Shown: positions 51,509 through 58,655 of the stretch, piece by piece | Layout of the letters: each line of letters begins with the position of its first letter | How positions within the stretch are numbered: position 1 is the stretch's first letter | From: Heterostelium pallidum | Taxonomy: Eukaryota | Length of the DNA: 64,000 nucleotides | Assembly (NCBI RefSeq): GCF_000004825.1 | Contig: NW_008805086.1 | Span: 965,410 to 1,029,409 of the forward strand | Direction of reading: 5' to 3' | Made by a program: the position numbers and the translations under genes | Notes under the pieces: generated by a model | The model's database searches: none | Told to the model about the DNA's origin: nothing | What the model saw: the letters and a program-made list of their open reading frames with translations, nothing else

Positions 51509-54500
51509 ATGAAATTGTTGGAAAGTAAAATTTGTTTTGTTGATGGAACTGCTGTGTCATTCAAAGACAAGAAGGTAATCAACGAACTACTCATTAAATA
51601 TGGTGCTTCAGTAACCACTCTATTGAATCAAAAGGTATGGAATAATTATTAGATACACCACCACCCACCCATTCATAACATTCACTAATTCTATTTGAAT
51701 TTCATTTTATAATTATTAGGTATCACTCTATGTTTGTTGTGTAAACGACTTACAATTATTATGTAAAGATAAGACTTCTCTAGATGAATCAAATGACACT
51801 AGTGGTAGTGGTGGTGGTGGTGATGAAGATGTTGGCTTTAGAGGAAGTATGTATGTCGATAGTTTGTCTTACAACATCAAGAAGGCCATCAAGCTGAATA
51901 TCCCTGTGGTCACACGACAATACATCGATGATTCATTTCAGGCTGGTGTTTTGTTGTCCACTGACCAATACCAATTGGTATCCCTGTATAATATCAAAGA
52001 ACATCATTATCAATCATTGGATTTCTCTAATGTCTTGGAGACATCCGGTGGAGACAATTCCGACGCCAAGTCGGTTGAACAACTAAAGCGGTATGCACTG
52101 GATGCAACCGATGCTCCTACCTTCCCCAATGATCGTTATCACATCGTCAAGTATAATGTTCTTCAAAGAATAGGTGCACAAGATTTTGCATGTATTGAGT
52201 TGCATGTTGGAGGTGGCGCACTCTCACGTATCACCTTGGCACCAGGTGGAGATTCCACCTCGTCATCTGACTCTGAACCAACTTACTATCGTGTATATCT
52301 CAACCGTGGAAGAATCGATAGTCTATCTACTTCTGTACATGAATGGATTGCTGCCAATGGAATGGAAGATGCTCTTGGTATCTACAATCAACTATTCCTT
52401 CACTATGTAGTGGAACAGTCGTACAGTAAGTTGTTATTGCGTACTACTAATGTTGGATCGTATCAGCTGAAACAACAGTCTGAAACTATACAGGAATCAC
52501 AACTCCCAGTTCAAGTTCAAGATCTTGTTACTGAACTGTACAAGCAGGCAGTATCGACTCTAGGAGACAAGCTTGGTGCTTCGAAGCTCCTCATTTCTCC
52601 AGAGGGTTCGATTGACACTGGCACAGGCTCCATTTCGCTTGTTCAAGTCGAAAAGGCAGAGTTGATACTTTACCAGATTGCCAATGCAGTGCGTACCGAT
52701 CCACAAGCAATTTCTGGTTCGTTTGTCTCGCAGTTGTTCAACGACTTTTATGCAGCACTCCCACAGACCAAGTCAACTGGAAAGGTCGCCTCTAATTCTT
52801 TGGAAACACTTCAGGACCTACAAGACATCGTTCAATTGATGAAAGATATTCTAAACGTCGGAGAATCACTGGGTGTCTCTCACTCGAACAACCCACTCGA
52901 TGCTCGTTACCGTGCCATGCGTTGTAACATCGAAACTGTCGATACCACCTCAAAGGAATACAAAAAATTGCACGACCAATTTGCAAAGTCCTCTGAGTCA
53001 CTCATGAAGATAAGCAACATTTTCAAGGTTACTCGTCGAGATGAAGAGAAACACTCACTTCCATATTCCAACGTCAAAACACTATACCACGGAAGTAAGT
53101 CTAGTAACATTCTTGGTATCTTGTCTCGTGGTTTACTACCACCAAAGTTGGCAACCTCATTGGGAGCATCTCGTCGAGATATAGGATATCTTGGTTCAGG
53201 TATTTATTTCGGTACAAAGTCATCAACAAGGTATGTTATTATTTTATTAATTTATTTCCACCACCACCACATAAACTATACTAATTCATAAATTTATTAC
53301 ATATATAGTTATCAATATTGTGATACAGTTACTTCAAAAAGATTTATGGTTGTTTGTCAAGTTGCACTTGGTGTAACAAAGAAATATACAACACATCAAA
53401 CACAGTTGACAGAGGCACCAAGAGGATATCAAAGCGTCCAGGGTGTTGCATCGGATGGAAAGAATGGATCGGTCTTTAATGACGATGAAATAGTTGTGTT
53501 TGATGCCAAGCAACAGGTTATCAAGTATTTGATTGAATTCCAACCACTTGTTTCGCAACCAGAGGCCAAGTTAAAGAATCTTGCATTGCAGGTCAACACC
53601 ACTGCTCCAAAGGCATCGGTCATTGATAATGACACTGTTCCAGTCTCGATACCACCATCGTCTCAACCATCGAAGGAGGAAGATGAGCCAGTGGAGTCTG
53701 GACTTATTAGCAGCGGTGTCAAAGTGCCACTGAAGGCGGTTCACGTTCGTGCCAAACTTCTCGATTTGATTGGAGAAGTAACTCTATTCCAACACTATAA
53801 TAACGCAACAAGTAAAGCCATTGAGGCCAAGTATGTGTTCCCACTGGATGAAATGGGTGCAGTATGTGGATTTGAAGCGTTTATCAATGGAAAGCATGTC
53901 GTTGGTGAGGTAAAAGAGAAGGAACGAGCTCACCGAGAATATAAACAAGCTATCTCTGAGGGACATGGTGCATACCTGATGGACGAAGAGAAGCCAGACG
54001 TCTTCACTGTGAGTGTCGGTAACATTCCACCCTATTCCGAGGTTCTCATTAAAATTACCTACATCACAGAGTTGTCTCTAGATGGATTGGACATCAGTTT
54101 CATCTTGCCATCATCAATTTCTCCAGCACAACAAGCTGTTTCCGGTGCACAAGTGACACAGTCCTCAACTTCAACTGTCCAAGTCAAAGAGATTGGTAAA
54201 TCAAACTTTACAGTTCAAATTGGTATTGAAATGCCATATAATATTGTTAAATTAAATTCACCAACACATCAAATACGTTCAAAGAAAACACATACCAAAG
54301 CTACGGTTGAATTGGATCGTGTCGAATCGCTCGGAACCAACTTTCAGTTGCTCATTGGTCTGGAAGATCCGTACAGCCCTAGAATGTGGGTTGAGGTTGA
54401 TAACAGTGGACATCATGCATCGATGTTGGCATTCTATCCAAAGCTAGATATCGAGCACGGCGATCAACCATCTATTGTTACGATCGTGCTTGACTTATCA

Positions 54501-57500: not shown

Positions 57501-58655
57501 AAATCGGCACAAGCTCCTCCACAACAACAACAACAACAAAAATTAGTTGCTGATCAATCTTCCTTACTTAATTCAATTAAAGAAGGAGCCAAATTAAAAA
57601 AGAAATCAGTGTCACATTCTTATTCCCCAACTGCACCATCTTACTCACCAACCTCACCATCTTACTCACCAACCTCACCATCTTACTCACCAACCTCACC
57701 ATCTTACTCACCAACCTCACCATCTTACTCACCAACCTCACCATCTTACTCACCAACCTCACCATCAATTAATCCGTCAGATTATGTCAAAAGTGGAGCA
57801 GCAGCAAGTGCAGGAAATATGAGACTGATGGACACTCTATCCTCTGCATTGTTTTCAAGACGTTCAACAGTTAAGTTCGACAGTTATTCTGAAGATGAGC
57901 CGAGCGATGACGATTGGGACGATGATTCACCAATGGAACAATTGAGTATCGATCCTGCTCCCAAGATGAAATATGAACAAAAGAAGGAGGAATGCTTGTC
58001 AGAAGAGGAAGGAGAAGATTTCAGAATGTCCTTGTTTGATGATGGTTATAGTGTACCTCTTACAGAACCAAAATATAACAAAGATATTGGTGCTCCACTT
58101 GCAAAATCGCAGCCAGAGAGAATCTATGAAGAATCAGAAGAGGATTGCGGTCTATTTGATGGAGATTTTGAACTTGAATTACTCGCAAAACCAGCTCCTA
58201 AGCCAATTTCTACTTCATCATTATCATCTTCATCAAGTGCCAAGAGATGCACTGTCATTGCAAACGATGACTCTGATGAGGACATGGGATTCGATTTGTT
58301 TGGCGACTACAGTCAGGAAGAAAAGAAAGCTTCACCACAAAAAGAAACGGAATCGATTGTTTGGAAACTCAATTCAGCAATCAACGGCAGAATTATGGAG
58401 GTTTTGGAGATTCTTGGTATCCCATTGAATGATCCGTTCATCCAAAAGGTTAATAAGAAAGAATACACCAGAGTGATAAACGAGTTGGTATTTGTTTTCC
58501 TCAAGCTACTCATCCATGATACAGAGGCTGCTCAAACCATGTTGAACAAGCTCAATAGATTGGCCCAAATCAAAACTGTACAAATCGATAGATATAGTCC
58601 AGCCTACTATTGCCTCAAGAGAACAAGATATGCACATCTCATTAAATCATTGTAA
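51509..58655 (+). CDS. PARP4 (vault PARP)-like protein, 2,327 codons: BRCT, PARP regulatory+catalytic, VIT and vWA domains, plus a long chimeric C-terminal extension
   Basis: Three exons (51509-51634, 51720-53230, 53309-58655) with phases 0 and 2. BRCT-like motifs are [19 protein letters not shown]. The PARP H-Y-E residues lie in LYHGS, GIYFG and [11 protein letters not shown] is [43 protein letters not shown]. vWA is [22 protein letters not shown]. The C-terminal modules are described in the findings. Confidence 0.85.
57621..57767 (+). repeat. Seven tandem 21-bp coding repeats giving 1x YSPTAPS plus 6x YSPTSPS
   Basis: The unit tacTCACCAACCTCACCATCT is repeated with perfect nucleotide identity in six units, in frame with the PARP4-like ORF. 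Confidence 0.95.

Follow-up and report, generated by a model that had tools for sequence, protein, structure and literature searches.

A gene in a 64,000-nucleotide stretch of the genome of Heterostelium album, a dictyostelid earlier named Polysphondylium pallidum, encodes an orthologue of PARP4 as one polypeptide, in which the PARP4 core is followed by a 14-3-3-fold domain and by a tail of about 700–800 amino acids (aa) that is mostly disordered. Judging from its sequence, we consider it probable that this tail serves as a partner-recruiting hub for the PARP4 enzyme, with a WASP-type VCA part, a part that mimics the tail of the ribosomal P-stalk, an array of heptads and a docking part. The stretch analyzed, hereafter the window, corresponds to positions 965,410 to 1,029,409 of contig NW_008805086.1 (assembly GCF_000004825.1). 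The gene itself and its PARP4 plus 14-3-3 architecture are already known, and part of the tail appears to be undescribed.

The gene (window positions 51509–58655, + strand) consists of three exons; its two introns, 85 and 78 bp long, have GT..AG borders. The spliced coding sequence of 6,984 nt is translated into 2,327 aa with one stop, located at the end, and the product is, at 100% coverage, 100% identical to the NCBI entry 'type A von Willebrand factor domain-containing protein [Heterostelium album PN500]'. An earlier note, made from the letters of this DNA alone, had described the last exon as uninterrupted, and its 5,347 nt are indeed open and stop-free over the full length. GC content stays at 0.37–0.51 throughout exon 3, tail included, and is 0.16–0.33 in introns, intergenic DNA and flanks; hence, nothing inside exon 3 resembles intergenic DNA. 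Besides this protein, four dictyostelid orthologues of 2,327–2,504 aa were available (C. fasciculata, D. purpureum and two EukProt entries). The comparison across Dictyostelia proposed in the earlier note bears out the layout: the N-to-C order of the whole protein is kept in all five orthologues, and the genomic loci of D. purpureum and C. fasciculata likewise contain three exons, with a last open stretch of 1,875 and 2,001 codons, respectively, that begins midway through the PARP domain and ends at the stop codon. As the layout recurs in these two species, a fusion artefact is disfavoured.

Conserved motif sets in the C-terminal tail

Tail identity and motif conservation were assessed on a five-species dictyostelid alignment. 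Identity ranges from 0.4 to 0.9 in the core, from 0.3 to 0.6 in the 14-3-3-fold domain and from 0.09 to 0.44 in the tail, the latter with conserved islands. The tail features listed in the earlier note are all present where it had placed them. When they were checked against profiles, the 14-3-3, heptad and VCA elements passed, whereas the RD/RS/RGG and FG-type tracts failed. By sequence, the motif sets that hold across the five orthologues are a proline-rich region plus VCA (PRD-VCA), the P-stalk-tail motifs and the YSPTSPS heptads.

The poly-proline, WH2, connector and acidic-tryptophan elements had been taken as signatures of separate systems. We find that they are better described, at the level of sequence, as one WASP/SCAR-type PRD-VCA unit. 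The RR pair of the connector (C) and the Trp of the acidic (A) motif are invariant in the five orthologues, the WH2 core LLxxIxxG is present in four of them, and poly-Pro runs with adjacent xFG(A) motifs recur in all. The VCA reaches significance only as a five-species profile, whose top match in the PDB is the VCA of WAVE1 (3p8c_D, E 1.7e-4), in an alignment that spans WH2, C (..SRR..V.Y/F.D...) and the terminal DW; N-WASP WH2/CA entries come next (E 2.5e-3). What defines the Arp2/3 activators of the WASP family at their C-terminus is a VCA preceded by a Pro-rich region (PMC3298513). The dictyostelid protein thus shares with SCAR/WAVE, WASP and WASH the Pro-rich region, the WH2 motif, the amphipathic C helix that bears a basic pair, and a Trp at the end of an acidic stretch. 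It differs from them in carrying a PARP4 enzyme at the N-terminus instead of a regulatory domain, and in the heptads that lie between V and C in H. album. None of the N-terminal domains WH1, SHD and WAHD1 was found, Pfam giving upstream of the VCA only PARP4-type domains and 14-3-3.

A link to actin would fit a family-wide pattern of actin-directed C-termini in PARP4-like proteins. Those of Ptychodera (a hemichordate), Amphiura (a brittle star) and Saccostrea (an oyster) terminate in some 50 aa of actin, comprising the N-terminal strands and the D-loop (Pfam Actin, 27–40 bits, profile positions 2–53 only). These fragments are located at aa 1401–1452 of P0009, aa 1344–1382 of P0013 and aa 1304–1357 of P0022, with an acidic/poly-Pro stretch just before. 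Actin or actin-binding domains have also been reported on PARP4-like proteins of Capsaspora, Salpingoeca and Acanthamoeba (PMC4245714). The invertebrate proteins resemble the dictyostelid one in the core, in the acidic/poly-Pro stretch, in an actin-related element and, in part of them, in a C-terminal 14-3-3 half; unlike it, they carry actin itself and no WH2/C/A module.

The acidic region and the folded end that follows it occupy aa 2100–2327, which the earlier note had summarized as a structured acidic C-terminus. The folded part stands, as a helical end of 104 aa; the acidic part is made up of three motifs that resemble the tail of the ribosomal P-stalk proteins and had been overlooked. By sequence, nothing else in the acidic region is as specific as these motifs. 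The five proteins hold 14 copies, two to four each, with the consensus EESDEDMGF[D/G]LFGDY and 13 residues shared, and this consensus matches the stalk tail EESDDDMGFGLFD, its CK2-type Ser included. The last 12–40 positions of the Pfam profile Ribosomal_60s (PF00428) are matched in all five orthologues, with 20.1 bits in H. album and 46.8 (E 4e-12), 28.6, 27.2 and 11.2 bits in the others; two of these exceed the curated cut-off of 28.1. The strict core D[MLI]GF.LF is observed eight times against 0.00015 expected, and none of 20,000 shuffles reaches eight. With the stalk proteins P1/P2/uL10 the dictyostelid PARP4 proteins share the 11–13-residue tail consensus; they differ in that their motifs are internal and that they have no P1/P2 N-terminal dimerisation domain. 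Judged on these features, dictyostelid PARP4 is not a member of the P1/P2 family, and the relation would be one of mimicry only. Ribosomes recruit translational GTPases through the stalk tail, which also contacts Gcn2 (PMC11624264).

In D. purpureum (locus L001, 8400–8702), the stalk-like motif and a KPVS-rich spacer form a 129-bp tandem repeat of 2.4 copies with 87% identity; as the unit sits in a tandem repeat, motif copy number changes by local duplication. Similar motifs were noticed in PARP4 of some percomorph fishes, within the acidic linker that follows the post-vWA block. They read DDLGFGLFD, EEDCGFGLFD or DMDMGFYLAD, and in the same linker one copy of SPTYSPTSPS or QYSPTSPN precedes a poly-Pro stretch with xFG(A); the dictyostelid tail has the same set. 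The fish motifs were seen in P0094 (aa ~1119–1135), P0050 (~1132–1142), P0064, P0051 (~1235–1243), P0046 (~1004), P0070/P0072 and P0104. The stalk-like pieces are not significant alone (PF00428, E 0.18–1). The fish motifs probably stem from one evolutionary event.

The seven heptads of RNA polymerase II C-terminal domain (CTD) type were confirmed as such, the Pfam profile RNA_pol_Rpb1_R (PF05001) giving 56.8 bits (E 1.6e-15), above its cut-off of 20.3. The DNA that encodes them is a 21-bp repeat of 7.1 copies with 96% identity. D. purpureum has an array of 7.1 copies at 96% and C. fasciculata one of 5.6 copies, both upstream of the poly-Pro, and one of the five orthologues has no heptads. With a position and a copy number that vary from one orthologue to another, the array can be regarded as recurrent, mobile and fast-evolving. 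Its likeness to the CTD of Rpb1 consists in tandem consensus YSPTSPS heptads; unlike that CTD, it has seven copies vs. 26–52, it is not on Rpb1, and it is a young 21-bp repeat whose place shifts between species.

The remaining tracts do not behave as modules. The RD/RE/RS plus RGG tract, which had been read as a splicing/RNA-binding signature, was rejected as such because it has no Pfam match and only 0.09–0.16 identity to orthologues; the DNA underneath is composed of purine-rich short tandem repeats. The S/T/G/P/FG-rich region (aa 1711–1890), also claimed as a module, turned out to be non-conserved low complexity with sub-threshold Pfam scores. As a candidate FG nucleoporin (PF13634) it was discarded, with 15.7 bits for Nucleoporin_FG vs. 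a cut-off of 32.2. Taken together, the RD/RS/RGG and S/T/G/P tracts show 9–22% identity and sub-threshold Pfam matches, and from their sequence we judge the RD/RS/RGG and FG-like tracts to be variable linker.

PARP4 core, 14-3-3-fold domain and C-terminal domain

The PARP4 architecture recognized in the earlier note is well supported, and sequence comparison identifies the first ~1,250 aa as a true PARP4 orthologue. Pfam recognizes BRCT (aa 7–115, 24.5 bits), the PARP catalytic domain (aa 453–622, 89 bits), VIT (aa 687–797, 123 bits) and vWA (aa 936–1091, VWA_3 59.7 bits); the helical domain PARP_reg (aa 341–439) is weak, at 21 bits and under its cut-off. The best PDB match of the catalytic region is human PARP4 (8sx1_A, E 4e-44), compared with E 2.6e-19 for PARP1, and residues H499, Y538 and E606 align with the H-Y-E triad of human PARP4. 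The segment aa 440–1300 (861 aa) is 37–44% identical to animal PARP4 at 97–100% coverage (E 1e-150 to 1e-187). From the alignment of the triad, the core is probably an active H-Y-E ADP-ribosyltransferase. The comparison with human PARP4 suggested in the earlier note holds for the core, where BRCT, helical, catalytic, VIT, vWA and post-vWA block are all collinear with human and animal PARP4, and ends there. The dictyostelid protein has 2,327 aa vs. 1,724, a full 14-3-3-fold domain is added, and the tail of about 800 aa contains VCA, stalk-tail motifs and heptads with no detectable MINT, the MVP-binding domain.

What had been called a 14-3-3-like helical region is a 14-3-3 fold. Pfam 14-3-3 matches above threshold with 85 bits over model positions 7–220 of 223, phmmer gives 14-3-3 zeta as a match at ~1e-23, and the AlphaFold2 (AF2) model of the region (pLDDT 81.8) has nine helices, the dimerisation helices A–D among those predicted. 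A protein search with aa 1185–1530 returned three fragments only. The role in phospho-signalling that the earlier note attached to it found no support. Residues K49, R56, R127 and Y128 (zeta numbering), which bind phosphate, are replaced in all five dictyostelid orthologues: K49 by D/E/S, R56 by a gap or Q/T/R/V, R127 by G/D/E/T and Y128 by I/A/T/G. Of the zeta reference sequence used for this mapping, the C-terminal half was checked against the zeta match of phmmer. In terms of sequence, the fold is retained and the canonical phosphopeptide site lost; as these residues are missing, a phospho-signalling role is not implied, and the domain is not supported as a phospho-reader.

PARP4 of amphioxus and of a hemichordate also carries 14-3-3 sequence, PF00244 matching the C-terminal half of 14-3-3 in Branchiostoma and Ptychodera. 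The distribution marks 14-3-3 as an old accessory of PARP4, by an ancestral or recurrent fusion. Perina et al. 2014 (PMC4245714) had already defined, among PARP4-like proteins, a type 'with appended 14-3-3 domain', and they list D. fasciculatum, D. purpureum, P. pallidum, Acanthamoeba, amphioxus, sea urchin and Capsaspora as carriers and report it missing from D. discoideum. Our protein belongs to the same family as this 'third type', P. pallidum being named there. That study gives SMART/Pfam domains only; for dictyostelids it records neither WH2/VCA nor stalk-tail motifs nor heptads, and it does not say that the 14-3-3 domain has lost its binding residues. The claim that the combination of modules is unknown in any described protein must therefore be narrowed: PARP4 with 14-3-3 had been described, in this very organism, whereas for a PARP4 with WH2/VCA no report was found. 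Our literature search gave no link of WH2/VCA to PARP4; WH2 occurs nowhere in PMC4245714, and neither PARP nor Polysphondylium is mentioned in the WASP-family survey of Kollmar (PMC3298513). The word 'ribosomal' is used in PMC4245714 only for an unrelated PARG domain. No non-ribosomal protein with multiple stalk-tail copies came up in our literature search, which was not aimed at such copies or at heptads on PARP4.

The last 104 aa are confidently predicted to fold into six helices (pLDDT 83.4, pTM 0.79). A profile of this terminal domain matched the five dictyostelid proteins only, among 1.84 billion representatives. For comparison with MINT we built a vertebrate MINT profile, which was verified on human PARP4 (aa 1583–1718, E 7.5e-55). 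MINT was not detected, hhalign of the terminal domain against this profile giving a probability of 0.5%. MINT is larger and has at least eight helices (PMC12280208), so that 104 aa and six helices stand against ~140–160 aa and at least eight. With no MINT detectable, 'vault' PARP is here a label of orthology and not a demonstrated property. A resemblance of the terminal domain to the N-terminal domain of ribosomal P1 (phmmer, E 0.24) was also rejected, as it disappeared with the five-species profile and is absent from Pfam.

Feature coordinates and neighbouring genes

Table 1. Coordinates of the PARP4 gene and of the elements of its product, in window positions.
Feature	Start	End	Strand	Residues (aa)	Remarks
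Exon 1	51509	51634	+		ATG at 51509; BRCT begins here
Exon 2	51720	53230	+		Remainder of BRCT, linker, PARP helical domain, first part of catalytic domain including H499 and Y538
Exon 3	53309	58655	+		Single exon from mid-catalytic domain (E606) through stop codon
VIT and vWA domains	53730	54944	+		Pfam; best-conserved part among orthologues, 0.5–0.9 identity
Post-vWA conserved block	55089	55451	+		Common to animal PARP4
14-3-3-fold domain	55581	56213	+	1304–1514	Nine helices; degenerate phosphopeptide site
RD/RE/RS plus RGG tract	56439	56771	+	1590–1700	Charged, low complexity
Pro-rich / xFG region	56802	57431	+	1711–1920	PPPPPP..PPPPP at aa 1896–1915
WH2-type motif	57543	57611	+	1958–1980	
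Seven YSPT[A/S]PS heptads	57621	57767	+	1984–2032	Between WH2 and C
Connector (C) helix and acidic-Trp (A)	57813	57929	+	2048–2086	DDDWDDD
Three P-stalk-tail-like motifs	57993	58310	+	2108–2125, 2152–2168, 2198–2213	
C-terminal six-helix domain	58341	58652	+	2224–2327	Dictyostelid-specific

Downstream of the PARP4 gene lies a convergent gene on the - strand (58712–61885), whose stop is 56 bp from that of PARP4. Five CCHC zinc knuckles (CFKCNQTGHISRDCP), with Gly/Asn-rich spacers between them, lie in its N-terminal open reading frame (ORF), and its C-terminal part resembles, by eye, a Nop9/Pumilio-type repeat protein. Upstream there are a glutamine-synthetase-like ORF of 494 aa (45524–47008, +), an ORF of 199 aa (48250–48849, +) and an oxysterol-binding-protein-like gene (48974–50297, -), the first and the last identified by eye. 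These upstream, housekeeping-type neighbours suggest no functional cluster around the PARP4 gene. Two minus-strand ORFs within exon 3 (56165–56827, 220 aa, and 57577–57768, with a 'MVRLVSK' repeat) were rejected as genes, since they mirror the purine-rich and the heptad repeats that the coding strand carries.

Alternative explanations and possible roles of the tail

Several observations weigh against a tail that recruits partners. Its bulk is 9–30% identical among orthologues. Pfam WH2 alone gives 13–15 bits, below the cut-off of 23, one orthologue (P0004) has no recognisable WH2, and the ~60 aa of seven heptads that part WH2 from C would be unusual in a working VCA. In H. album itself PF00428 scores 20 bits, under its cut-off of 28.1, with two of the three copies degenerate, and the motifs are internal, vs. 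a free C-terminus for the ribosomal one. Recent tandem duplication drives the heptad arrays and one P-stalk unit, as in neutral low complexity. D. discoideum, in which vaults were studied, appears to be without this gene, no orthologue being among the matches of a protein search with the PARP4 core, and vault association is unsupported with no detectable MINT. Some of these points would be expected if the tail were a neutrally drifting disordered linker, its VCA-, stalk- and CTD-like stretches being compositional look-alikes, and the protein an ordinary PARP4 with a spacer. Low tail identity, the failure of the RD/RS/RGG and FG tracts in profile tests, heptads that are 96%-identical 21-bp repeats in positions differing by species, and the sub-threshold WH2 all agree with such drift. 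We nevertheless think it unlikely, since the WH2-C-A order, the RR pair and the Trp are kept in five species amid unalignable sequence, and the best PDB matches of the profile are nearly all WASP-family VCAs. Nor would drift account for a 13-residue stalk consensus repeated 14 times, for eight strict cores where 0.00015 were expected, or for PF00428 scores above the curated cut-off in two orthologues. An annotation artefact, by which a PARP4/14-3-3 gene was fused to a separate downstream WASP-like gene, could explain the unusual size of 2,327 aa and the mixed content, and the gene model is known here from genomic sequence alone. We hold it to be extremely improbable, given 5,347 nt without a stop or an AT-rich intergenic stretch, the 1,875- and 2,001-codon last exons of the same content in D. 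purpureum and C. fasciculata, and the same N-to-C order in five orthologues.

Two further alternatives concern single parts of the tail. The stalk-like repeats directly follow the A motif within the acidic region, they are internal and not C-terminal, and in H. album the stalk consensus is not fully kept in two of three copies, all of which would suit extra Arp2/3-binding 'A'-type motifs or generic acidic-hydrophobic ligands, whose partner might be the protein's own 14-3-3-fold or terminal domain. This seems to us quite unlikely, because the match spans the whole stalk tail (Ser-acidic3-M-G-F-G/D-L-F) and goes beyond an acidic stretch with an aromatic residue, because Pfam places the motifs at the last 12–40 positions of Ribosomal_60s in all five proteins, and because A-type motifs use Trp and not GFxLF. 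The terminal six-helix domain, in turn, might be a functional analogue of MINT; the protein would then be a genuine vault component and the tail would act in or at the vault, e.g., on enclosed ribosomes. Its extreme C-terminal position and helical make-up are as in MINT, and vaults of D. discoideum enclose 80S ribosomes, PARPs and ribosomal proteins being enriched by MVP proximity labelling (PMC13100048). A link of the dictyostelid protein to the ribosome is only suggestive. That the domain stands in for MINT we consider doubtful, taking into account the 0.5% probability given by hhalign, the difference between 104 aa with six helices and ~140–160 aa with at least eight, and the seeming absence of the gene from D. 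discoideum.

We therefore return to the tail as a probable recruiting hub, and to what its parts might do; from sequence comparison we can only infer Arp2/3 activation, mimicry of the stalk and an association with vaults. The PRD-VCA would bind profilin-actin or G-actin together with the Arp2/3 complex, and could either nucleate branched actin at the site of the protein or offer actin and Arp2/3 to the catalytic domain. The stalk-tail copies would bind readers of the P1/P2/uL10 tail, be it the translational GTPases eEF2 and eEF1A or GCN2. The YSPTSPS heptads may act as a phospho-regulatable spacer that expands and contracts rapidly, and the terminal six-helix domain as a lineage-specific docking domain at the position of the animal MINT, any homology with it being undetectable. 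A bolder proposal, which we put forward only tentatively and regard as unlikely as it stands, is that dictyostelid PARP4 would be a new kind of enzyme-scaffold: an ADP-ribosyltransferase with its own Arp2/3 activator and a multivalent P-stalk-tail decoy, which would capture eEF2, eEF1A or GCN2, or act as the ribosome's competitor in binding them, and then modify or sequester them at actin-assembly sites or vaults. Links to actin and to translation factors would, on the same proposal, be ancient in vault PARPs; we propose this because of the weak motif traces in the fish linker and the actin fragments of the invertebrates.

Were the motifs inert, the protein would be a known PARP4 plus 14-3-3 orthologue with a long disordered tail. 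If they work, it would join an ADP-ribosyltransferase, Arp2/3 actin nucleation and readers of the ribosomal stalk in one polypeptide, and it would become a candidate nucleation-promoting factor outside the known WASP families. eEF2 is the classic target of ADP-ribosylation by toxins. Of all PARPs, PARP4 is the least understood, and vault function has been a question since 1986. An ancient link of vault PARPs to actin and translation factors, if true, would provide a handle on that function, the vaults of Dictyostelium being particles that enclose ribosomes.

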